The translations under genes were made by a program, and so were the position numbers. The notes beneath the pieces were generated by a model. It ran no database searches and was not told where the DNA came from. It saw nothing but the letters and a program-made list of their open reading frames with translations. Shown here piece by piece: positions 5,540-58,187 of a stretch of DNA of 64,000 nucleotides (the stretch's first letter is position 1; each line of letters begins with the position of its first letter). The DNA is from Minisyncoccota bacterium. Its GTDB lineage: Bacteria > Patescibacteriota > Minisyncoccia > Phycocordibacterales > UBA9973. The stretch is from positions 2,208 through 66,207 of the forward strand of contig JBAYHR010000003.1 in NCBI GenBank assembly GCA_041666045.1. The letters are read 5' to 3'.

Positions 5540-7288
5540 ATGAGTTTTTTAGAAGAATTAGCAAAAAAGGGGATAATAAACGAGACTCAAATAGGTGAAA
5601 TTAAAAATCGTGCAAAAGAAAAGCATGATGGTAATGTTTATGACGCATTGGCTGAATCTGGGATATCGGAAGATGTAATTTTAGAAATTAAAGGAGAATA
5701 TTTTCAAATACCAACAAAGAAAGTAAATGCAAAAGCTGTATCTTTTGATGTGTTAAAAAATATTCCAGAAGATTCAGCTATTTATTATAATTTTGTTCCA
5801 CTTGATTTAAAAGATGGAGTATTGGAAGTGGGAGTAATAAATCCTGAAAATATTCAAGCAATGGATGCTCTGCAATTTATTTCTGCAAAATTAGGCATTC
5901 CTTTTAAAATTTTCCTTATTTCTAAAAAAGATTATACAGATGTGATGGAAAATTATAAAGGTCTTTCAAGTCAAGTAAGTGAAGCTCTGGATGAATTAAA
6001 TGAAGATGTTGCAGATATAAAAGTTTCAGATGAAGCTCTTAAATTAAGCAAAGATATAAAAGATGTGAAACCTGGAGAAGAAGTAAAAATTATAGAAGAT
6101 GCGCCAGTTATAAAAATTGTTGCTGTTATACTTCGCAATGCCATAGAAGGGAATGCTTCCGACATACATATAGAATTTACAGGAGAGAAAGTAAAAGTTC
6201 GTTATCGTGTGGACGGTTCTTTGCATACCAGTATTGTTTTACCTCCAAATGTTTATAGCGGGGTAGTGGCGCGTATAAAAATTCTTGCAAAATTGCGTTT
6301 AGATGAAAAAAGAAAACCGCAAGACGGATCTTTTAGCGCAAATATTGATGGACGCAAGATAGATTTTCGTGTATCTACGATGCCAGCATATTATGGAGAG
6401 AAAGTTGTAATGCGTATTTTAGATTCTGAAAAAGGAGTAAAACCGTTAGATCAACTTGGTTTGTCAAAAAGAAATCTTGAAATGATTAGAGAATCTATTA
6501 AAAAACCTTATGGATTAATTTTAATTACAGGTCCTACTGGTTCTGGAAAATCTACAACTTTATATTCTATGATGAATGAATTAGATAAAGAAAAAAGCAA
6601 TATTGTGTCATTAGAAGATCCAGTGGAATATCATATGCCAGATATTAATCAATCACAAATGATGCCTGAAATTGGTTATACATTTGCATCAGGACTTCGT
6701 TCAATTCTTCGTCAAGATCCAGATGTAATAATGGTTGGAGAAATTCGTGATAAAGAAACAGCTCAACTTGCTATTCAAGCAGCGCTTACCGGACATCTTG
6801 TTCTTTCAACATTGCACACGAATAATGCTATCGGTGCAGTTCCTCGTCTTGTTGATATGGGAGTTGATCCATATTTAATTGCTCCAACTTTAATTCTTTC
6901 CGTTGCTCAAAGATTATCAAGAATGACTTGCGCTTCTTCTAAAAAACTTATACCAATGGATGAAAGTATAAAAATTCAAATTAAAGATCAAATGAAAGAT
7001 TTGCCAGACGAATTTAAGAAAGAAATTGAAATAAAAAGTGAAATGTATGAAACTGTGCCATCTCCAGAATGTCCTTCTGGCACTAGAGGACGTATTGCTG
7101 TTTATGAAATGTTTAAAATAGATAAAGAAATGCAGAATGTAATTTTGAAGAATCCTGTTGATTCTGAAATTTACAAAGCAGCTCGCAATAATGGCATGCT
7201 TCTAATGAGAGAAGATGCAATGTTGAAAGCTGTTGATGGTATTATTCCTTTTACAGAGGTTTATAATTTTGGCAATGAAAATGAATAA
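5540..7288 (+). CDS. pilB: type IV pilus assembly ATPase PilB (GspE family)
   Basis: Walker A GPTGSGKSTT, Asp box, His box (LSTLHTN) and a tetracysteine-like CxxC region. N-terminal GspII_E-like domain. Confidence 0.9.
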   Translation: MSFLEELAKKGIINETQIGEIKNRAKEKHDGNVYDALAESGISEDVILEIKGEYFQIPTKKVNAKAVSFDVLKNIPEDSAIYYNFVPLDLKDGVLEVGVINPENIQAMDALQFISAKLGIPFKIFLISKKDYTDVMENYKGLSSQVSEALDELNEDVADIKVSDEALKLSKDIKDVKPGEEVKIIEDAPVIKIVAVILRNAIEGNASDIHIEFTGEKVKVRYRVDGSLHTSIVLPPNVYSGVVARIKILAKLRLDEKRKPQDGSFSANIDGRKIDFRVSTMPAYYGEKVVMRILDSEKGVKPLDQLGLSKRNLEMIRESIKKPYGLILITGPTGSGKSTTLYSMMNELDKEKSNIVSLEDPVEYHMPDINQSQMMPEIGYTFASGLRSILRQDPDVIMVGEIRDKETAQLAIQAALTGHLVLSTLHTNNAIGAVPRLVDMGVDPYLIAPTLILSVAQRLSRMTCASSKKLIPMDESIKIQIKDQMKDLPDEFKKEIEIKSEMYETVPSPECPSGTRGRIAVYEMFKIDKEMQNVILKNPVDSEIYKAARNNGMLLMREDAMLKAVDGIIPFTEVYNFGNENE

Positions 7289-14520: not shown

Positions 14521-16671
<2,151 letters not shown>

Positions 16672-16717
16672 TAGCTTGCGTCCATCTATCTGAGAGCTTA
16701 TAATTAAAATCCACTTG

Positions 16718-16784
16718 TCCCGTTAGAAAATCATCGGGGTAGTGGTTTGTCGGTAAAGATTATAAATTAAATTTTCTAATGGGA
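16718..16784 (+). repeat. intergenic copy of the CCCGTTAGAAA inverted-repeat element, with the right arm ending in the ATG of the downstream gene
   Basis: Left arm TCCCGTTAGAAAATC. Right arm ATTTTCTAATGGGA, one mismatch. Separated by about 38 nt. Confidence 0.7.
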
Positions 16785-41244: not shown

Positions 41245-41262
41245 TTTTTTAAAAAAAGAGCG

Positions 41263-41335
41263 AATACAAAAGTTTTCTGGCAAGCAAAAAGAATCCAGTG
41301 CTTGCAGGCAAAAATTTTTGTATTCGCTCTTTTTG
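41263..41335 (+). terminator. long nested hairpin downstream of the KH-protein gene (terminator or structured RNA)
   Basis: Outer stem AGAGCGAATACAAAA / TTTTGTATTCGCTCT encloses a second imperfect stem (CTGGCAAGC...GCTTGCAGG), followed by TTTTTG. Confidence 0.5.
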
Positions 41336-44346: not shown

Positions 44347-47300
44347 ATGCAAACACAAACCAAGCGTCCAAAGAAGTATTTTTCAAGGTATAAGAAGCCA
44401 TTAATAGAATTTCCTAATTTGATAGAAGCGCAAGTAAAATCTTTTAAATGGTTAGTAGAAACTGGCATAGGGGAAGTGTTTAAAGAATTTTCCCCAATCT
44501 CTGATTATTCCGGTAAAAAATTTCAACTTGATTTTACATCTTTCTCTCTTGGTGAACCTAAGTTTGATGAAGGTAATGCAAAAATAAACAAGCTCTCCTA
44601 CGAAGGTCTTTTAAAAGCTCGTGTGAAATTAACAAATAAAATTTTAGGAACTGTTAAAGAACAGGAGATTTTTATATCTGAGATGCCTTTGATGACATCA
44701 CACGGAACTTTTATAATAAATGGTGTTGAGCGTGTTATTGTCCCTCAGCTTGCCAGATCTTTCGGTGTATTTTTTACAGAATCTGAAAGTAAAGGTAAGA
44801 GATATTTTGGCGCAAAAGTTATTCCTGCTCGTGGAGTTTGGATTGAAATAGAATCTGAATCTGATGGAGGAATTTATATAAGAATAGATAAAAAGAGAAA
44901 GTTTCCAGCAACTGCATTACTTCGTGCGATGGGTTTTCACTCTGATGAAATGATATTAAAAGCATTTGGAAAAAATGCTACTTACGAAGAAGCTATGAAA
45001 GCTTGTTTAGCCAAAGATCCAGCTAAGACTGTGAACGATGCGTATATTGAAATATATAAACGTTTAAGAGACGGAGATATGGCGACAGCTGATAATGCTA
45101 AAGAATTTTTCGATGCATTATTTACTTCAGAAAGATATGACCTTTCTCCAGTTGGAAGATTTCGTTTTAATAAAAGATTTGAAAAGCCAATGGATGAGGT
45201 GGAATTATTAAGAAGAACTATTTCAAAAGAAGATTTAATTACTGTATTTAGTAATATTATAGATTTAAATAATGATCCACAAGCTAAAGCAGACGATATA
45301 GATCACTTGGGTCAAAGACGTGTGCGTTTCGTTGGAGAAATGCTTCAACAAAAAATTCGTACAGGTATGATGCAAATTAAGAGAAATATTCAAGACAGAA
45401 TGTCTACTATTGATGTTGATACTGCAATGCCTATACAAATAATAAATCAGCGTCCACTACAAGCTCGTATTAAAGAATTTTTCACAACAAACCAACTTTC
45501 ACAATTTATGGCACAGGAAAATGTGCTTTATGAGATGGAACATTTGCGTACTTTGTCAGCGCTTGGACCCGGAGGTCTCACACGTGAAAGAGCAGGACTA
45601 GAAGTTCGTGACGTGCATCCTTCTCACTATGGAAGAGTTTGTCCTATACACACACCAGAAGGTCCAAACATTGGACTTATTTTACATATTTCTACTTATG
45701 CAAAAATAAATGATTTTGGAATTATTGAAACTCCTTATATAAAAGTAAAAAATGGAAAGATTACAGGAGAAGTTGTTTATTTAAACGCTCTTGAAGAAGA
45801 AAAATACAATATTGCGCATGCTGGAATTCCTTACGATGAAGATGGAAAAATAACAGAAGATAAAGTTGAAGCTAGAGTAAAAACTGTACCAGGTATGATT
45901 TCAAAAAATGAAGTTGATTTTATTGATGTTGCTACAAATCAAGCTTTTTCTATTGCAACATCTTTAATTCCATTTCTAGAACACAATGATGCAAACCGTG
46001 CACTCATGGGATCAAACATGCAGAAGCAAGCAGTTCCATGTGTATTGCCTGAAGCGCCACTCGTTGCAACAGGTGTTGAAGAATTAGCATCACGTGATTC
46101 AGGTAGATTGGTAATAGCTATAGAAGAAGGAGTAGTTTCTTATTTAGATGCTAAAAAAATAATAGTAAAAGGAAAATCTGAAAAAACATATCCACTTGTT
46201 AATTTTTTAAGAAACAATAATTTCTCCGCATTTCATCAGAGACCAGCAGTAAACATAGGGGATAAGGTTAAAAAAGGTGATGTGTTAGCAGACACTTCAA
46301 GTACAGTAAGCGGACAGATTTCAATCGGACAAAATATTTTTGTTGCGTTTTTATCATGGAGTGGATCAAACTATGAAGACGCTATAATAGTTTCTGAAAG
46401 ATTAGTTAAAAATAGCAAATTTACTTCTATTTACGTAGAAGAATTTATTTGTACAGTTCGTGATACAAAACTTGGACCTGAAATAACAACTCGTGATATT
46501 CCAAACATTGGTGAACTTAAACTTAAAGATCTAGATGAAGATGGAATAGTTCGTGTTGGAGCAGAAGTTCGCGAGAATGATATTTTGGTTGGTAAAATTA
46601 CTCCAAAAGGTGAGAGTGAATTAACTCCTGAAGAAAGATTGCTTCGTTCCATCTTTGCTGAAAAAGCTCGTGATGTAAAAGATACATCATTGCGCATGGA
46701 ACATGGAAAACGTGGACGTATTATTGGTGTGAAAATTTTCTCACGTGATTTAGGACATTCTCTTGAAGCAGGAATTATTAAAAAAATAGTAATAGAAGTT
46801 GCTCAAATAAGAAATATTTCTGTTGGAGACAAGCTTTCTGGACGACACGGAAACAAAGGTGTTATATCAACAATTCTTCCAGAAGAAGATATGCCATATA
46901 TGGCAGATGGTACACCAGTAGATATTATTCTTTCACCACTCGGTGTTCCTTCTCGTATGAACTTGGGACAGATTTTAGAAATACACCTTGGTATGGCTGC
47001 AAATAGTTTAGGATATCAAGCTATCGTTCCTCCATTTTTAGGAGCAAAACATGAAGAAATAAGTGAAGAATTAAAGAAAGCAGGTCTTCCAGAAAATGGC
47101 AAGATGAAACTTTTTGACGGACGAACAGGAGAGAGTTTTAATCAAGATGTAGCTGTTGGTTATATGTATATGTTGAAACTTCACCACATGGTTGAAGATA
47201 AAATACATATGCGTTCAATAGGTCCTTACTCTTTGATTACTCAACAGCCACTTGGAGGAAAGGCTCAAGGTGGAGGACAAAGATTCGGAGAAATGGAAGT

Positions 47301-47520
47301 GTGGGCGCTTGAAGGTTATGGCGCATCTTATACGCTTCGTGAAATGTTAACTATTAAGTCTGATGATATTATGGGTCGATCTGCAACTTTTGATTCTATT
47401 ATAAAAAATGAAGTTATTAAATCACCAAATTCTCCAGCTTCATTTAATGTGATGTTAAATTATTTAAGAGGACTTGCGCTTGATGTAAGTTTGAATAAAT
47501 CTTCTTCAGATAAAGAGTAA
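44347..47520 (+). CDS. rpoB: DNA-directed RNA polymerase subunit beta
   Basis: Canonical RpoB blocks throughout, for example GPGGLTRERAGLEVRDVHPSHYGRVCPI. Confidence 0.95.
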   Translation: MQTQTKRPKKYFSRYKKPLIEFPNLIEAQVKSFKWLVETGIGEVFKEFSPISDYSGKKFQLDFTSFSLGEPKFDEGNAKINKLSYEGLLKARVKLTNKILGTVKEQEIFISEMPLMTSHGTFIINGVERVIVPQLARSFGVFFTESESKGKRYFGAKVIPARGVWIEIESESDGGIYIRIDKKRKFPATALLRAMGFHSDEMILKAFGKNATYEEAMKACLAKDPAKTVNDAYIEIYKRLRDGDMATADNAKEFFDALFTSERYDLSPVGRFRFNKRFEKPMDEVELLRRTISKEDLITVFSNIIDLNNDPQAKADDIDHLGQRRVRFVGEMLQQKIRTGMMQIKRNIQDRMSTIDVDTAMPIQIINQRPLQARIKEFFTTNQLSQFMAQENVLYEMEHLRTLSALGPGGLTRERAGLEVRDVHPSHYGRVCPIHTPEGPNIGLILHISTYAKINDFGIIETPYIKVKNGKITGEVVYLNALEEEKYNIAHAGIPYDEDGKITEDKVEARVKTVPGMISKNEVDFIDVATNQAFSIATSLIPFLEHNDANRALMGSNMQKQAVPCVLPEAPLVATGVEELASRDSGRLVIAIEEGVVSYLDAKKIIVKGKSEKTYPLVNFLRNNNFSAFHQRPAVNIGDKVKKGDVLADTSSTVSGQISIGQNIFVAFLSWSGSNYEDAIIVSERLVKNSKFTSIYVEEFICTVRDTKLGPEITTRDIPNIGELKLKDLDEDGIVRVGAEVRENDILVGKITPKGESELTPEERLLRSIFAEKARDVKDTSLRMEHGKRGRIIGVKIFSRDLGHSLEAGIIKKIVIEVAQIRNISVGDKLSGRHGNKGVISTILPEEDMPYMADGTPVDIILSPLGVPSRMNLGQILEIHLGMAANSLGYQAIVPPFLGAKHEEISEELKKAGLPENGKMKLFDGRTGESFNQDVAVGYMYMLKLHHMVEDKIHMRSIGPYSLITQQPLGGKAQGGGQRFGEMEVWALEGYGASYTLREMLTIKSDDIMGRSATFDSIIKNEVIKSPNSPASFNVMLNYLRGLALDVSLNKSSSDKE

Positions 47521-47552
47521 AAATATTAAGAATAAAAAATAAATTAAAATAT

Positions 47553-50500
47553 ATGAAAACTTTAAATACAACTGAATTTGATAACATTACATTAAGACTT
47601 GCTTCACCTGAGCAAATTAAAGAATGGTCTTATGGGGAAGTTACTAAGCCTGAAACGATAAATTATCGTACAGGCAGATCTGAACGTGGCGGTCTCTTTG
47701 ACGAAAAGATATTCGGTCCAGAAAAAGATTACGAATGTTATTGTGGAAAATATCGCAGGATTCGTTATAAAGATATTATTTGTGAAAAATGCGGAGTTGA
47801 GGTTACTCGTTCTGCTGTAAGACGTGAGAGAATGGGGCATATTGAACTTTCTACACCAGTTTCTCATATTTGGTTTTTGCGTGGGGTGCCATCTAGAATG
47901 AGTATTCTTCTTAATATTTCTGTTTCTGATCTTGAAAAGGTAATTTATTTTGCTGGATATATAATTACTGAAGTTTTTGAAAAAGAAAAAGAAATAATTA
48001 TTCAAAATTTGGATAAAGAATATAAAGTTAAATTAAAAAATTCTGCAGATGATGACACTCGTGAAAAATTAAAAACATTACTTTCTATTACGAAAAAAGA
48101 GATTGGGGAAATTTATGAAGGAAAAGTTTTAAATGAAATTTCATTTCACCATTATTCCTTAAAATATGGTACATGCTTTGAAGCAAATATTGGCGCTGAA
48201 GCTATTTATTCTATTTTTAAGAATTTAGATTTAAATAAACTTAAAATTCTTACCGAGACGATGATTGAAAAATCTAGTGTTGCAGAAAAAGAAAAATTAC
48301 AAAAAAGACTTTCTCTTATTAGGGCTATGACATATGCCGGTATTCGTCCAGAATGGATGTTTCTTACTATTATTCCAGTTATTCCACCAGTTCTTCGTCC
48401 AATGGTTGCGCTTGATGGAGGACGTCATGCTACAAGCGATTTAAATGATCTTTACAGACGCGTGATAAACAGAAATAATCGTTTGAAGAAATTGAAAGAA
48501 ATAAATGCTCCAGATGTAATTTTAAGAAATGAAAAAAGAATCATTCAAGAAGCAGTAGATGCTTTAATTGATAACTCTATAGCAAAACAAAATGATTCTG
48601 CTGCTATGAGTCAATCTCAAAAGCGTCCATTGAAATCATTGTCTGACAATTTGAAATCGAAGCAAGGTCTTTTCCGTCAAAACTTGCTTGGTAAGCGTGT
48701 AGATTATTCTGGACGTTCCGTTATTGTTGTTGGTCCTCAGCTTAAATTAAATCAGTGTGGTTTGCCAAAACATATGGCTCTTGAGCTTTTCAAACCTTTC
48801 GTAATTTCAAAAATCTTACAAGCAGAATTAGCATTCAATATTCGTGGAGCTAATAAATTAATAGAAGAGAGAACACCAGAAGTTTGGGCAATGCTTGAAG
48901 AAGTGATACAAGGTAAATATGTTCTTTTAAACCGCGCTCCAACTTTGCACCGTTTGGGTATTCAAGCTTTCAATCCTATTCTTATTGAGGGTAATGCTGT
49001 TCAAGTGCATCCCCTTGTTTGTCAGGCTTTTAATGCGGACTTCGATGGAGACCAGATGGCTGTTTATCTTCCTCTTTCAGAAGAAGCGCAAAATGAAGCA
49101 AAAGAATTAATGGCTGCAAATAAGAACTTACTTAAACCTCAAAATGGAGATCCAATAGTTCATCCAAGTAAGGATATGGTTTTAGGTTCTTATTGGATGA
49201 CAAAATCTGTTGATGGAGAACCTGGAGAAGGAAAGTATTTTTCAAGTCCAAATGTGGCTATTACTGCATATAAATTTGGGGTTGTTTCTCTTAGAGCAAA
49301 AATTAAAGTAATGGCTACTGATACTATTAAGTATAAAAAATTTAATGGTGAAATTTTTGAAACATCTGTTGGAAAACTTTTATTCAATAGTATTTTGCCA
49401 AAAGATTTTGCTTATGTTACAGAGGAAATGACTCAAAAGAGATTGTCTTCGCTTGTTGATGAACTTATTATGTTTTATGGTGTTGATAAGACTCCACCAA
49501 TATTGGATAAAATTAAAGAATTTGGTTTTAAATATTCAACAGTTTCTGGTACGACTTGGGGATTAGACAATGTTAAAGTTCCAGTAGAAAAACCAAAAAT
49601 AATAGCTGACAGTAAAAAACTTGAAGATGAAGTTATTTCTCAATGGAGCGATGGTCTTTTGTCTTTAGATGAAAGATATCAAAAGATTATTGAAATCTGG
49701 ACTCAAGCTAAAAAGAATTTAGAAAAAGTTTTACCGAATACTCTTGATAAAAATGGTTCAACTTATGATTTGTTTACTTCTGGAGCTCGTGGAACTATGA
49801 CAAGTTTAGTTCAGATGACAGGTATGAAAGGACTTATCCAAAACAATCAAGGAAAGACATTGGAATTTCCTATTATTCCTTGTTATCACGAAGGACTTTC
49901 TCCAATTCAATATTTCGTTACTACTCACGGTGCTCGTAAGGGTGCTTCAGACACAGCTTTAAATACCGCTAAAGCTGGATATCTAACTCGTAGATTAGTT
50001 GATGTTGCGCAAGATGTTGTAATAACAGAAGAAGATTGTGGTACAAAAGAAGGTAAAATAGTAAAACGAGAAAATATTTCTGGAATTGAAATTCCACTTT
50101 CAAAAAATATTCGTGGACGTGTTTTAGCAACTGATCTTAAAGATAAAAATGGAAATGTGGCTTATAAAAAAGGATTTTTAATTACTAAAGAAGAAGCATA
50201 TAATATTGAAGGAGCAGGATTTACTGAAGTATTCGTTCGTTCTCCTTTAACTTGTCGCACTACTCATGGTATTTGTCAGATGTGTTACGGATTGGATTTG
50301 GGAAGAAATCATTTAGTTGATTTGGGAGAAGCTGTAGGCATAATCGCAGCGCAAGCTATCGGTGAACCAGGCACACAGCTTACACTTCGTACATTTCATG
50401 CTGGAGGAGTCGCAGGTACTGACATCACTACAGGTCTTCCACGTATTGAAGAAATTTTTGAAAGAAGAATTCCAAAGAATCCGGCAGTTGTTTCTCAAAC

Positions 50501-51164
50501 AGATGGAGAAGTTATTGAAATTAAAGATAAAGATGGAAAAGAAAAAATCATAAAAGTTCTTTCAGATTCAAAAGTTGATGGAAAACCAAATGAAATAGAA
50601 TATGTTGCGCCATTCAGAAGAATACCTTTAATTAAAGTTGGCAGTAAAATTAAGAAAGGAGAACTTCTAACAGACGGATCTGCTGATATTGCCGAAATAT
50701 TCAAATATGGAAATAAAGAATTGGTGGAAGAATATATAATTAGAGAAATAAATAAAGTTTACGAATTACAAAGCGCGTCTATTGCAAGAAAGCATACAGA
50801 GATAATTGTCCGTCAAATGTTCTCACGCAGGAAAATAAAAGATACTGGTGAAACTAATTTCTCTATCGGTGATATTGTTGAAAATTCTGCGCTTATTGAA
50901 GAAAATGAAAGAGTTGCTAAAAATGATGGAAAACAAGCTAAAGCTGAAATAATAGCGCTTGGTATTACGGAAGTATCTCTACGCACTAAGAGTTGGTTGT
51001 CTGCCGCTTCATTCCAAAATACAAATAGAGTTCTTATTGAAAATGCCATTAAAGGCGGAGTAGATTATCTAAGAGGATTAAAAGAAAATGTTATTATTGG
51101 ACGCTTAATTCCAGCAGGAACTGGATTTAAGAAGAATGCAGTTTCATCTGCAAAAGAAGAATAA
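47553..51164 (+). CDS. rpoC: DNA-directed RNA polymerase subunit beta'
   Basis: Zn finger CxxC...CxxC. Catalytic NADFDGDQMAV. Trigger loop and bridge helix regions present. Confidence 0.95.
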   Translation: MKTLNTTEFDNITLRLASPEQIKEWSYGEVTKPETINYRTGRSERGGLFDEKIFGPEKDYECYCGKYRRIRYKDIICEKCGVEVTRSAVRRERMGHIELSTPVSHIWFLRGVPSRMSILLNISVSDLEKVIYFAGYIITEVFEKEKEIIIQNLDKEYKVKLKNSADDDTREKLKTLLSITKKEIGEIYEGKVLNEISFHHYSLKYGTCFEANIGAEAIYSIFKNLDLNKLKILTETMIEKSSVAEKEKLQKRLSLIRAMTYAGIRPEWMFLTIIPVIPPVLRPMVALDGGRHATSDLNDLYRRVINRNNRLKKLKEINAPDVILRNEKRIIQEAVDALIDNSIAKQNDSAAMSQSQKRPLKSLSDNLKSKQGLFRQNLLGKRVDYSGRSVIVVGPQLKLNQCGLPKHMALELFKPFVISKILQAELAFNIRGANKLIEERTPEVWAMLEEVIQGKYVLLNRAPTLHRLGIQAFNPILIEGNAVQVHPLVCQAFNADFDGDQMAVYLPLSEEAQNEAKELMAANKNLLKPQNGDPIVHPSKDMVLGSYWMTKSVDGEPGEGKYFSSPNVAITAYKFGVVSLRAKIKVMATDTIKYKKFNGEIFETSVGKLLFNSILPKDFAYVTEEMTQKRLSSLVDELIMFYGVDKTPPILDKIKEFGFKYSTVSGTTWGLDNVKVPVEKPKIIADSKKLEDEVISQWSDGLLSLDERYQKIIEIWTQAKKNLEKVLPNTLDKNGSTYDLFTSGARGTMTSLVQMTGMKGLIQNNQGKTLEFPIIPCYHEGLSPIQYFVTTHGARKGASDTALNTAKAGYLTRRLVDVAQDVVITEEDCGTKEGKIVKRENISGIEIPLSKNIRGRVLATDLKDKNGNVAYKKGFLITKEEAYNIEGAGFTEVFVRSPLTCRTTHGICQMCYGLDLGRNHLVDLGEAVGIIAAQAIGEPGTQLTLRTFHAGGVAGTDITTGLPRIEEIFERRIPKNPAVVSQTDGEVIEIKDKDGKEKIIKVLSDSKVDGKPNEIEYVAPFRRIPLIKVGSKIKKGELLTDGSADIAEIFKYGNKELVEEYIIREINKVYELQSASIARKHTEIIVRQMFSRRKIKDTGETNFSIGDIVENSALIEENERVAKNDGKQAKAEIIALGITEVSLRTKSWLSAASFQNTNRVLIENAIKGGVDYLRGLKENVIIGRLIPAGTGFKKNAVSSAKEE

Positions 51165-51177
51165 TTTTTAATTATTT

Positions 51178-52935
51178 ATGAACTCTCCAGTACAACAAAT
51201 TAAGGAGAGGCTTTCGATAGAAGATGTAGTCTCTTCATATATAAAATTAGATCGTGTTGGCTCAAATTTAAAAGCCAAATGTCCTTTTCACAATGAGAAA
51301 ACACCATCCTTTTTTATTTCTCCTGACCGGGGAGGCTATTATTGTTTTGGTTGCGGAGCAAAAGGAGATATTTTTACTTTTGTTGAAGAATTTGAAGGAC
51401 TTGATTTTAAAGGCACGCTTAAACTTTTAGCAGACAAAGCTGGAATTAAACTTGATGATTATAATTTTAAAGATGAAAGTGAAAAAGAAAAATTATACAG
51501 AGCGATGGAAGAAGCAACGAAGTTTTTTGAAAATAATTTAGTTGGGAATAAAGATGTATTAAATTATTTAAAATTACGTGGTTTAGAAGATAAAACGATA
51601 AAAAATTTCAGAATTGGTTTTGCAAATAATGATTGGCGTTTACTTTTTAATTATTTAAAATCAAAAAACTTTAGTGATAAAGAAATAGAACTTGCTGGGC
51701 TTGCTAAAAAACCTGATGACAAAAGCAAAGCCATGTATGATAGATTTAGGGGTAGAATAATGTTTCCAATTTCGGATTCAAGTGGGAGAGTGATAGCTTT
51801 TTCTGGAAGGATTTTTATTGACGACGGAAAGTCAGCAAAATATCTAAACAGTCCTGAAACTCCAATTTTTAGTAAGTCCGCAGTGTTATATGGTTTAGAT
51901 AAAGCAAAAGAATCAATTCGCAAGAATAATTTTTCTATTTTAGTTGAAGGACAATTTGATTTAATATTGTCTCATCAAGCAGGATTTAGGAATACAGTTG
52001 CCACTTCTGGCACAGCTCTTTCAGATTCTACTTTATCTAAAGAAAAAGTTGTTTCTAATTTAGGCTTGATTCGTCGTCTTTCAGGCAATATTGTACTCGC
52101 TTTTGATGCAGATAAAGCGGGATTTAGTGCGGTTAATCGTGCTAGTAAAATCGCTTTATCTTTTGGAATGGATGTGAAAGTGGCTTCTATGGATGATGGT
52201 GTTGATCCAGCTGATTTGATTTCTAAAGGTGGTAATGATAAATGGAAAGAAGCCATTAAAAATTCAAAACATATAATAGAATTTCTTTTAGATAAAGTTT
52301 TAAAAAATTACGGAAATGATATGCGTAAGGCCGGGAGAGAAATAAAAGAAAAAATATTACCTTATGTGAATGCTTTGGATAGTTCAATTGAAAAAATGCA
52401 TTTTATAAAAAAAATAAGTGATGCGTCTCAAATACCAGAACAAGCTTTAAAAGATGATTTGAAAAAAGTTGAAGAAGAATTAAAATATGAAATAAGAGAA
52501 ATAAAAGATATAAAAGAAGTTGAAAAAAATATTTTTAAAAAAGACAATATATTACACAGATTATTAGGAATAATACTTTGGCAAGAGACATTAGTAGAAA
52601 AAATAGTTGATTTTGAAAGTATTTTAAAAGAAATTGCAGATACTTTAAATAGTACATCAGAAAAAGTATTAGAAAAAACGAAAGATAATAGAGAAGACTT
52701 GATTTTTGAAGCAGAAGTTTTTTATGGCAAAGATGCTGATTTAAAAAAGGATGTTAGAGAATTACTTAATAATTTTAAAGAAGAATATTTAAAAGAAGAA
52801 TTATTTTGTAAAATGAAAGAATTGCATATATCTGAGATAGAGAAAGATAAGTTAAAATCAATTGAAATTTTAAAAGAAATAAATATTATAAATAATAAAA
52901 TACAAAATATTAAAAATGGTCGTTTAAATAAATAA
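51178..52935 (+). CDS. dnaG: DNA primase
   Basis: Zn ribbon CPFHNEKTPSF...CFGCGAKGD. TOPRIM (EGQFDLI, DADKAGF). Confidence 0.9.
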   Translation: MNSPVQQIKERLSIEDVVSSYIKLDRVGSNLKAKCPFHNEKTPSFFISPDRGGYYCFGCGAKGDIFTFVEEFEGLDFKGTLKLLADKAGIKLDDYNFKDESEKEKLYRAMEEATKFFENNLVGNKDVLNYLKLRGLEDKTIKNFRIGFANNDWRLLFNYLKSKNFSDKEIELAGLAKKPDDKSKAMYDRFRGRIMFPISDSSGRVIAFSGRIFIDDGKSAKYLNSPETPIFSKSAVLYGLDKAKESIRKNNFSILVEGQFDLILSHQAGFRNTVATSGTALSDSTLSKEKVVSNLGLIRRLSGNIVLAFDADKAGFSAVNRASKIALSFGMDVKVASMDDGVDPADLISKGGNDKWKEAIKNSKHIIEFLLDKVLKNYGNDMRKAGREIKEKILPYVNALDSSIEKMHFIKKISDASQIPEQALKDDLKKVEEELKYEIREIKDIKEVEKNIFKKDNILHRLLGIILWQETLVEKIVDFESILKEIADTLNSTSEKVLEKTKDNREDLIFEAEVFYGKDADLKKDVRELLNNFKEEYLKEELFCKMKELHISEIEKDKLKSIEILKEINIINNKIQNIKNGRLNK

Positions 52936-52948
52936 AATTAATTTATGA

Positions 52949-53069
52949 ATCCCGTTAGAAATCAAAAAGTTAAGTAATTTTTCACGGGATAAATAATTAT
53001 GGAGTATATAAAAGTCATTATTAATAAATTAACTACGGAGATCTAAAGATTTCCTATTTCTAACGGGAT
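52949..53069 (+). repeat. intergenic copy of the CCCGTTAGAAAT inverted-repeat element, with the right arm overlapping the rpoD start codon
   Basis: Perfect 14-bp arms ATCCCGTTAGAAAT / ATTTCTAACGGGAT, 93 nt apart. A partial extra right-arm copy (TCACGGGAT) lies inside. Confidence 0.75.
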
Positions 53070-54279
53070 GAAAAAAATAAAAGTAAAAAAAGTAAATAAG
53101 AAACCAAAAACAAAAGCTAAAAAAATTGTTAAAAAAGCTAAAAAAAGTATTAAGAAAGTAAAAAAAGTTTTATCAAAGAAAGATAATAATAAAAAATTAA
53201 CCGCAGCAGAAAAAAAAGTTAAAGAATTTACACATTTAGCAGATGAGCTTATAGAAAAGGGACGTAAAAGAGGATTTATCATCTATGATGAAATATTAAA
53301 AACTTTTCCTGATATTGAAAATAATATTTTATTTTTAGATGAACTTTATGAGAAATTTAGTGTTGTTGGTGTTGATGTTTTAGAAGGAGGTAATTTGCTT
53401 AATCTTGATAATGATATTAATGATAAGGATTTAAATAAATCAACTATTCATGATTCCATACAAATGTATCTTAAAGAAATCGGTCAATATCCGCTTATTC
53501 ATGCCAGTGACGAAAAAGATTTAGCAAAACGTATAGAAAATGGAGATGAAGAAGCAAAAAATTTACTTGCTCGCGCAAACTTACGTTTAGTTGTTTCAAT
53601 TGCAAAAAAATATGTTGGCAGAAGCGCCAATCTAAGTCTGCTTGATTTAATTCAAGAAGGGAATTTGGGTTTATTTAAGGCTGTTGAAAAGTTTGATTGG
53701 ACAAAAGGATATAAATTTTCCACTTATGCCACTTGGTGGATTCGTCAGTCTATAACTCGCGCATTAGCTGATCAATCTAGAACTATTCGTATTCCAGTGC
53801 ATATGGTTGAAACTATTTCAAAATATAAACAAGTGCACAGAAGACTTAGTCAGGATTTAGGCAGAGAGCCATTAGCAGAAGAAATTGCAACTGAAATGGG
53901 AATACCAGTTGAAAAAATTCATGTTATAGAAAATATAAGTCAGGAAACAATTTCACTTGAACAACCTATTGGAGATGATGACGATAAATCAACATTAGAG
54001 AATTTTATTCCAGATGATAAAATTTTGCGTCCAGATCAAGATTCTTCTCGCAGGATTCTTTCTGATCAAATTCGTGAAGTTTTAAATGAACTTAATCCAA
54101 AAGAAAGAAAAATTCTTGAAATGCGTTATGGCTTGATTGATGGTATACAGCATACATTAGAGAGAGTAGGGGAAGAATTTGGAGTTACTCGTGAGCGTAT
54201 TCGTCAGATTGAAGCAAAGGTGCACGAAAAACTTCGTCATCATGAAAAAATCGCTCGCTTAAAAAATTATTTTGATTAA
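53068..54279 (+). CDS. rpoD: RNA polymerase sigma factor RpoD-like (sigma-70 family, group 1/2) with K-rich N-terminus
   Basis: Region 2 ([24 protein letters not shown]). Region 3. Region 4 ([26 protein letters not shown]). Position after dnaG. Confidence 0.9.
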
Positions 54280-57500: not shown

Positions 57501-58187
57501 TTATAATATTTTATCAATTTTTTGAATTATGTTTTCAATTGGTTCTGCTCCGTCGATAGTATCAACAATTTTTCCATTTTTTAGGATGAAGCTTTTTGGA
57601 GTTCCATTTACACCAGCTTTATTTCCACTATCCATATCAGCTTGTACTTTTCCTTTTGTTTTTTCATTTGTAAGACAGTCATTAAATGAAATAAGATCAA
57701 GCCCAATATCTTTTGCAATTTTTGGAAGTTCTGTTACATCAAGTCTATTATTTGATGTTGTTCTTACATAAAGTTCATCAGTATATTTCCAAAAAGTATC
57801 ATTTCCACCTTGCTCTGATGCGCATTCCATTGCTACAGATTCATTGAAAGCTTTTGGATGAAGTTGCACAATTGGATAATGTCTATATACCCAAGCAACT
57901 TTTCCATCATATTTGGTAATAACTTGATACATTGTAGTGTGGAATATTTTACAGAAAGGACATTCGCTATCTGAATATTCAACTATCACAATTTTAGCAT
58001 CTGGATTTCCTAAAATATGATCATTTATTGAAACGGGTTCTATTTTTATATTTTTTATGTTAGCTTTATTATCTAGTGAGTTGGGGGCAACAGCAGTACT
58101 GCCTTTTAATAAAATAGCCCCAGCTATTATCAATCCAGCTATAATTATAGCCCCAGCTATTTGTTTTTGATTGTTATTTTTTTCCAT
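57501..58187 (-). CDS. DsbA-family thiol:disulfide oxidoreductase, membrane-anchored
   Basis: N-terminal TM. CPFC active site in SDSECPFCKIF. Thioredoxin fold. Confidence 0.75.
   Translation of the reverse strand: MEKNNNQKQIAGAIIIAGLIIAGAILLKGSTAVAPNSLDNKANIKNIKIEPVSINDHILGNPDAKIVIVEYSDSECPFCKIFHTTMYQVITKYDGKVAWVYRHYPIVQLHPKAFNESVAMECASEQGGNDTFWKYTDELYVRTTSNNRLDVTELPKIAKDIGLDLISFNDCLTNEKTKGKVQADMDSGNKAGVNGTPKSFILKNGKIVDTIDGAEPIENIIQKIDKIL

Follow-up and report, generated by a model that had tools for sequence, protein, structure and literature searches.

The 64,000-nucleotide stretch analysed here (the window: positions 2,208 to 66,207 of contig JBAYHR010000003.1 of a Minisyncoccota bacterium) carries a perfect inverted repeat around the spacer between dnaG, encoding primase, and rpoD, encoding the housekeeping sigma-70 factor. 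The repeat very probably represents the two 13 bp terminal inverted repeats of a 119-nt, non-autonomous, hairpin-forming element of the MITE kind (miniature inverted-repeat transposable elements). Judged by comparison with related loci, the whole spacer is an insertion of this element in codon 2 of rpoD, directly after ATGAA, which leaves the predicted RpoD protein unchanged. It is a transposon scar, not a conserved regulator of rpoD, and the MITE-like element apparently belongs to an undescribed family.

The insertion at the dnaG-rpoD boundary

The two arms, ATCCCGTTAGAAAT at 52949-52962 and its exact reverse complement ATTTCTAACGGGAT at 53056-53069, lie 93 nt apart in AT-rich DNA (G+C of the window ~27-34%). 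A preliminary description of this DNA had reported a perfect 14 bp repeat bracketing the spacer. This is exact, and is refined here to a repeat of 13 bp (52950-52962 with 53056-53068); the 14th pair is present because the last A of the left TGAA pairs with the first T of the right TGAA, i.e. within the duplicated target. Two other observations of that description also hold: the right arm supplies the A of the rpoD start codon (ATG 53068-53070, whose A and T are the last two bases of the 14-nt arm), and an internal partial copy is present, a degenerate right arm at 52977-52990 (ATTTTTCACGGGAT, of which 52977-52989 is ATTTTTCACGGGA). The boundary comprises the following features:

51178-52935, plus strand: dnaG (primase), an open reading frame (ORF) with the Pfam domains Zn_ribbon_DnaG, DNAG_N and Toprim; stop codon TAA at 52933-52935
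52945-52947, plus strand: original rpoD start ATG, stranded upstream of the insertion, as recognised from the ATGAA(A/G)AA arrangement of relatives
52945-52977, plus strand: short ORF from the old ATG through the left arm, read from sequence and translation
52946-52949, unstranded: left duplicated target TGAA, the same tetranucleotide standing 3' of the element
52950-53068, plus strand: palindromic 119-nt element, apparently MITE-like, of a lineage with the terminal bases T and A (T...A-ended); absent from related rpoD loci, with kin in L169, L102 and L062
52950-52962, unstranded: left 13 bp terminal inverted repeat TCCCGTTAGAAAT; pairing in the family drops sharply past position 13
52977-52989, unstranded: inner degenerate right-arm copy, able to form a local hairpin (-11.4 kcal/mol) with the left arm
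53037-53054, plus strand: sub-hairpin GGAGATC-TAAA-GATTTCC just 5' of the right arm, kept with compensatory variants in the closest copies
53056-53068, unstranded: right 13 bp terminal inverted repeat ATTTCTAACGGGA, its last A being the A of the rpoD ATG, as read from the sequence
53069-53072, unstranded: right duplicated target TGAA, its TG completing the new ATG, as read from the sequence and its relatives
53068-54279, plus strand: rpoD, housekeeping sigma-70 factor of 403 aa (Pfam Sigma70 r1.1-r4)

Related loci were obtained by an rpoD protein scan with one genome per species, which yielded 80 loci (877 kb), the best of them from Candidatus Nomurabacteria or Paceibacterota. The arm motif is present upstream of rpoD in none of these 80 loci. 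The 31 Nomurabacteria/Paceibacterota loci inspected possess the dnaG stop codon, a short spacer and then ATGAA(A/G)AA, encoding MKK..., with a dnaG-rpoD gap that measures, e.g., 10 nt (L062) or 3 nt (L071). In all of them dnaG and rpoD almost abut and the repeat is lacking, which speaks against the earlier suggestion of a regulatory RNA controlling the housekeeping sigma factor.

An alignment of the window with six relatives displays a block of ~90-120 nt in the window alone. The junctions read ...TTTATGAA, then the element (TCCCG...119 nt...CGGGA), then TGAAAAAAATAAAAG; in a fuller reading ...AATTAATTTATGAA adjoins TCCCGTTAGAAAT on the left and ATTTCTAACGGGA adjoins TGAAAAAAATAAAAG on the right. 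Deleting 52950-53072 restores the arrangement of the relatives exactly, with the reconstructed empty site ...AATTAATTTATGAAAAAAATAAAAG..., and while relatives have a single ATGAA at rpoD, the window has TGAA twice (52946-52949 and 53069-53072). The rpoD ATG is rebuilt in frame because the element ends in A, so that the right junction reads A+TGAA. A public gene call places the rpoD start at this same ATG, and the predicted N-terminus is MKKIKVKK, compared with MKKIKSKK in the relative L019. The old ATG (52945) survives at the left junction, where it heads an ORF of 10 codons (MNPVRNQKVK) that ends with TAA at 52975-52977.

The genes at 44347-54279 follow each other on one strand in the order rpoB-like (1057 aa), rpoC (1203 aa), dnaG and rpoD; the rpoC-dnaG-rpoD adjacency is confirmed by public gene calls on ena:ERZ27249449:k141_1592170. 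Some of the related loci (L011, L017 and L024) possess other small GC-rich hairpins in their dnaG-rpoD spacer, just before rpoD (~5810-5880), unrelated in sequence to the element family.

A dispersed family of palindromic copies

The 14-mer of the arm, searched at up to two mismatches, occurs 8 times in the window as against 0.67 expected, a number reached in 0 of 100 shuffles, and these matches make up three paired copies (14856-14905, 16718-16784 and 52950-53068). The arm sequence is present in the first ligA insertion, as described earlier, there with one mismatch (ACCCCGTTAGAAAT, 14855 and 14893). A related partial motif had also been placed before the start of an ECF sigma gene: the 9-mer TTTCTAACG exists at 601-609, but at chance level, with one match beyond five inside real copies versus 0.79 expected. 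The two copies away from rpoD are:

14856-14905, plus strand: 50-nt copy in ligA with the terminal bases C and G (C...G-ended), flanked by TTAA and TGAA; hairpin dG -34.2, z -5.7
16718-16784, plus strand: 67-nt T...A-ended copy between ligA and the next gene, flanked by CTTG and TGAA, with no intact duplication

Together with a 4-nt flank of the duplicated type, the ligA copy measures 54 nt, i.e. 18 codons in frame without a stop, and compared with E. coli LigA (2OWO) this segment is inserted. The last A of the copy at 16718-16784 forms, with the following TG, the ATG (16784) of an ORF for the S-component of an ECF transporter.

A second, different GC-rich palindrome lies in frame in ligA at 15270-15365, with the arms GTCACCTGCAAAATTTTCTTC and GAAGAAAATTTCACAGATGAC. 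It makes LigA ~26 residues longer there than the E. coli protein, relative to which the segment is an insertion, and its interior has the core CGCGAGGG/CCCTCGCG in common with the interior of the first ligA copy. Elsewhere in the window, a 24-nt inverted repeat (96% complementary, 34-nt loop; AAAAAGAGCGAATACAAAAGTTTT / AAAATTTTTGTATTCGCTCTTTTT) is found at 41253-41334 and could be a terminator or another palindromic element.

A scan of metagenome contigs for the two-arm pattern detected at least 133 copies in at least 120 contigs; all family counts given here and below refer to the matches listed. The family pattern is (C/T)CCCGTTAGAAA...TTTCTAACGGG(G/A) with a length of 49-123 nt, its arms being also written CCCCGTTAGAAA ... 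TTTCTAACGGGG. Host contigs have 30-58% G+C, and the copies adjoin different genes and contain no ORF of their own. Two copies are found among the 80 related rpoD loci, both elsewhere than at rpoD (L062:7980-8098 and L071:6941-7059). In AT-rich DNA one perfect 14 bp inverted repeat per 150 nt would be no great surprise (rough estimate ~0.2 expected per window), but a chance repeat or an assembly artefact has next to no probability given the eight arm matches in the window and the recurrence of the arms in independent contigs, at least 120 of them, that come from many projects.

Three further copies occur in two predicted viral contigs (IMG/VR, L202-L204). Tandem arrays are present in L175:11-118, L183:1325-1474, L088:615-800, L171 and L104, where neighbours share a 4-nt spacer, e.g. 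...CGGGG CTTG CCCCG.... A GC-rich subfamily of 95 nt (core length 93; e.g. L082, L113, L163, L188 and L198) always has one orientation relative to a GTAAA flank, the TAA of which is often the stop codon of the upstream ORF. The summed lengths of element and duplication are enriched for multiples of three (61:42:30).

The terminal pair is complementary in 96% of 134 copies, as C-G in 97 and T-A in 29, and the ends are CCCC in 97 copies and TCCC in 29. Position 13 is complementary in 84% of the 134, with all four pair types, as against 16% for position 14. In L062 the arms carry a double compensatory change from GTTAGA/TCTAAC to GTACGA/TCGTAC. Covariation of the arms, as expected under the RNA suggestion, does thus occur, but as a trait of a dispersed element family, not of an rpoD leader.

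A 4-nt flank is perfectly repeated in 83 of 133 copies versus 12% with shuffled partners. The commonest duplications are TAAA/TTTA (35 copies), TGAA/TTCA (29) and TCAA/TTGA (8). Immediately 5' of the duplication stands a purine in 93% of the C...G-ended copies, and an A in 15 of 16 T...A-ended ones. Closely related copies possess different duplicated tetranucleotides (TGAA, TGGA, TGCG), each matching on both sides; because they differ in this way, the flanking tetranucleotides represent copied target and not a part of the element. The family thus has the marks of a MITE: 13 bp terminal repeats, a duplication of constant 4 nt, small size without a transposase gene, many unrelated sites, and empty sites. 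The arm sequence was not found in the literature searched, nor was any account of MITEs in candidate phyla radiation (CPR) bacteria/Patescibacteria.

Copies on start and stop codons

For about half of the copies the site of insertion coincides exactly with a start or stop codon. In ~48 of 134 copies the ATG or GTG at the junction opens an ORF of at least 60 aa, and in 31 of these 48 the old ATG still stands upstream. The first 3 nt of the left duplicate serve 23 copies as the stop codon of an ORF with 80 codons or more, and 12 of 134 (~9%) are located in frame inside long ORFs. Copies persist mainly where they are harmless, i.e. on stop codons (the left duplicate keeping the stop), on start codons (ATG or GTG being rebuilt from terminal base and duplicate), in frame within genes such as ligA, or between genes.

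The two terminal types differ strongly in position: of the T...A-ended copies 28 out of 29 are placed at an ATG start, versus 19 of 97 for C...G-ended ones (Fisher p = 2e-14). Copies with a recognisably related neighbour have it within their own type (T...A with T...A 5/5, C...G with C...G 47/47), and because related copies share it, the terminal pair is a trait of lineages. The rpoD copy of the window groups with those of L169 and L102, both of which stand at the starts of unrelated genes. Start-associated copies are furthermore polar: an inner repeat resembling the right arm lies beside the start-distal arm in 14-17 of ~50, and the mirror arrangement never occurs.

ATGAA or ATGGA opens 23 of the 53 genes of the window (~43%), which are thus ready targets for the element. 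Most of the enrichment at gene boundaries can be explained by an insertion preference for purine-T[A/G]AA together with purifying selection where genes are densely packed; this offers no obvious account of the coupling of orientation, or of a terminal base that matches the base 5' of the target.

L062 and L071 have orthologous DsbA-like genes (55% identity), and in both the element stands at the start codon (ATGGA) of that gene. Their interiors belong to different subfamilies, which speaks against one old conserved insertion; repeated insertion or replacement at one start codon is more likely, as far as the interiors can tell. The homologous DsbA-like gene of the window (57501-58187, minus strand) has no copy.

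As a further step, the T...A lineages may be start-codon specialists that insert one way at A|TGNN of start codons and rebuild the AUG with their own terminal A. The gene would stay expressed through the retained old AUG, whose short ORF would open the hairpin or end at the new AUG. We regard this as rather doubtful.

Shine-Dalgarno (SD)-like sequences (GGAG/GAGG/AGGA) are found upstream of 3 of the 53 window ORFs (>=100 aa), and leaders are AT-rich. The preliminary description was right that the rpoD ATG has none, which carries no weight: because the genome hardly uses SD sequences, the lack of one is normal, and the start should need an unstructured context. Translation of rpoD would now begin by SD-independent initiation at the rebuilt AUG, like that of almost all genes here. 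Ribosomes from the old AUG, which keeps its native context 9 nt past the dnaG stop, would probably run through the left arm and would thereby melt the 14 bp stem that otherwise sequesters the new AUG. The hairpin between left arm and inner arm could likewise free the new AUG during transcription.

Affinities, alternative explanations and meaning

The element would be mobilised in trans by a DDE/DDD transposase, possibly of the IS1380/piggyBac kind, as suggested by CCC ends, a 4 bp T..A duplication and an asymmetric subterminal repeat. The end of piggyBac itself reads CCCTAGAAAGATA. Members of the piggyBac superfamily, with IS1380 as the prokaryotic relatives, have CCC ends and a TTAA duplication with TAAA and TCAA variants (PMC10813416). 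The ends of the present element likewise begin with CCC (CCCCGTTAGAAAT) and share with that superfamily the 4 bp T..A duplication and an asymmetric subterminal repeat (PMC10813416), but the duplication is TAAA, TGAA or TCAA instead of TTAA. This resemblance, drawn from a dozen bases, is only a lead.

MITEs of other bacteria (Correia/NEMIS of Neisseria, MITEAba12) are similarly short and ORF-less, with perfect terminal repeats, a duplication of fixed length, many dispersed copies and presence or absence among relatives; they form hairpins in transcripts and can alter gene starts or make fusions. The present family differs from them in that no parent insertion sequence (IS) was found, in that about half of the copies lie on start or stop codons, and in that a terminal base helps to rebuild the start, with T...A lineages almost only at ATG starts. 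Rickettsia is known to have palindromic elements that lie in frame (review PMC10969869). Here too palindromic selfish DNA lies in frame in essential genes of a reduced genome (ligA, and 12 metagenomic cases), but the arm sequence and the host phylum are, as far as we know, others, there are 13 bp terminal repeats and a 4-nt duplication, and in-frame copies are a minority (~9%). To our knowledge, the Rickettsia elements are ~100-150 bp long and without recognisable duplications. REP/REPIN elements, mobilised by RAYT, are comparable as short palindromes that directly follow stop codons and are numerous, with some of the copies paired in tandem or inverted order. As far as we know, REPINs have no target duplication, and a Y1 enzyme recognises their conserved GTAG-type head; in the present family, in contrast, the duplication is real. 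Hairpins with short direct repeats at the foot and an upstream ORF also occur in MS2 coat-to-replicase coupling, the T4 gene 60 bypass and mitochondrial 'byps', which offer an analogy for tolerating an insert and, as to mechanism, speculation only.

Several observations weigh against a simple cut-and-paste MITE, or against parts of the scheme proposed for it. The orientation of the interior is tied to an asymmetric target, one subfamily always having GTAAA and the inner arm always being start-distal, and such coupling is unusual for an element with symmetric ends. A perfect duplication is lacking in 38% of copies, among them five start-associated ones (16718-16784, L108, L114, L131 and L134) with the left flank ACTTG (16713-16717 in the window); that ACTTG belongs to a longer conserved element is ruled out by unrelated sequences further upstream. 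The covariation of the arms (L062, position 13) is as compatible with selection on a folded structure as with simple descent. No autonomous partner was recognised: arm pairs 0.4-4 kb apart in ~1.7 Mb of loci enclose ordinary genes, those with equal flanks containing genes for ribosomal protein L31 and for MurG-like, thioredoxin and glycosyltransferase-like proteins, and these loci contain no candidate DDD/DDE transposase. At equilibrium, moreover, the 14 bp stem takes in the A and U of the rpoD AUG, and the computation does not support the translation part of the model: the predicted accessibility of the start is no better in natural than in flipped orientation (unpaired probability around the start 0.338 vs 0.324 over 46 copies, p = 0.79). 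A role of the inner arm as a decoy that keeps the start accessible is unsupported at equilibrium for the same reason.

A cis-regulatory RNA that evolved as a dedicated control of rpoD (as thermometer, attenuator or protein-binding leader) could draw on a stable fold, since the 119 nt form one long hairpin (dG -27.8 kcal/mol, z -2.9) that pairs the A and U of the AUG, on the alternative hairpin of left and inner arm, and on the covariation of the arms. It is nevertheless highly unlikely: the repeat is absent at dnaG-rpoD in all 80 related loci, the same arms stand in ligA and at more than 130 unrelated sites, and no Rfam family matches 52700-53300 at E <= 1. The hairpin might secondarily affect how rpoD is translated. 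The preliminary description had alternatively proposed a leaderless-type start created by insertion of an element, of which the creation of the start by insertion stands and the leaderless part is not supported. A promoter supplied by the element, giving a leaderless or short-leader rpoD transcript, would suit an ATG that abuts the element end and an AT-rich interior by the right arm that is partly conserved in related copies. However, no sigma-70-like site was found on the plus strand in 52950-53068, although CPR promoters may differ; the bases ATTTCT at -12 to -7 lack the key -10 positions; and the only feature flagged in the element is the weak terminator-like hairpin at 53037-53054, all of which makes such a promoter very unlikely. 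More room is left for co-option of the insertion, in which the hairpin and the ORF of the old ATG would couple rpoD translation to that of dnaG and from the old start, with ribosomes opening the stem, or terminating at or beside the new AUG and re-initiating. The retention of the old ATG and the polarity of start-associated copies argue for it, as does an old-ATG frame that 21 of 48 copies keep open up to the right arm, versus 8 of 48 when flipped and 18% with shuffled interiors (p = 3e-5), and that then ends with a TAA 7 nt before the new ATG or a TGA overlapping ATGA, or reads through. In the window, on the other hand, the short ORF has 10 codons and ends 90 nt short of the rpoD AUG, and with accessibility equal in both orientations co-option is a tentative possibility, on the unlikely side.

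An element moving as a single-stranded hairpin, of the REP/REPIN-RAYT or IS200/IS605 (PATE) kind, and inserting 3' of a fixed short target would account for the strong hairpins, for the orientation relative to the asymmetric target R-T[A/G]AA, for three window copies in the same orientation on the gene-rich, G-skewed strand, and for the tandem arrays. It is improbable, since the flank is a true duplication (relatives having one ATGAA), since the flanks TGAA, TGGA and TGCG differ among close copies yet match on both sides, and since the terminal repeats are perfect and symmetric instead of two different subterminal hairpins. Insertion by IS200/IS605 3' of a fixed tetra- or pentanucleotide without duplication is at odds with these same differing, matched flanks, and an IS91 model is rejected on arm polarity or true duplication. 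Paired cores of integron attC sites read 5'-RYYYAAC ... GTTRRRY-3'; the present arms have the opposite core polarity, their 5' arm containing GTTAGAA and their 3' arm TTCTAAC.

With a MITE-like insertion as the preferred explanation, the apparent 132-nt dnaG-rpoD spacer and the extra LigA residues are to be annotated as transposon insertions, and not as leaders or lineage-specific protein features. The streamlined genome of an uncultivated member of the Patescibacteria tolerates a selfish hairpin among the opening codons of its housekeeping sigma factor and within its DNA ligase. A 4-nt T[A/G]AA duplication, together with a terminal base that rebuilds ATG or GTG, lets a transposon live on gene boundaries at almost no cost. 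The kind of element is known; new is a family with the unusual habit of occupying start and stop codons, in which the element's own terminal base serves to restore the start. If T...A copies do target starts, or if hairpin and short ORF tune initiation, they would provide a natural system for SD-independent translation and for transposon domestication in CPR bacteria. If the T...A lineages are start specialists, they would be a transposon lineage on the starts of essential genes of CPR bacteria lacking SD sequences, and could act as a reversible dial of translation.

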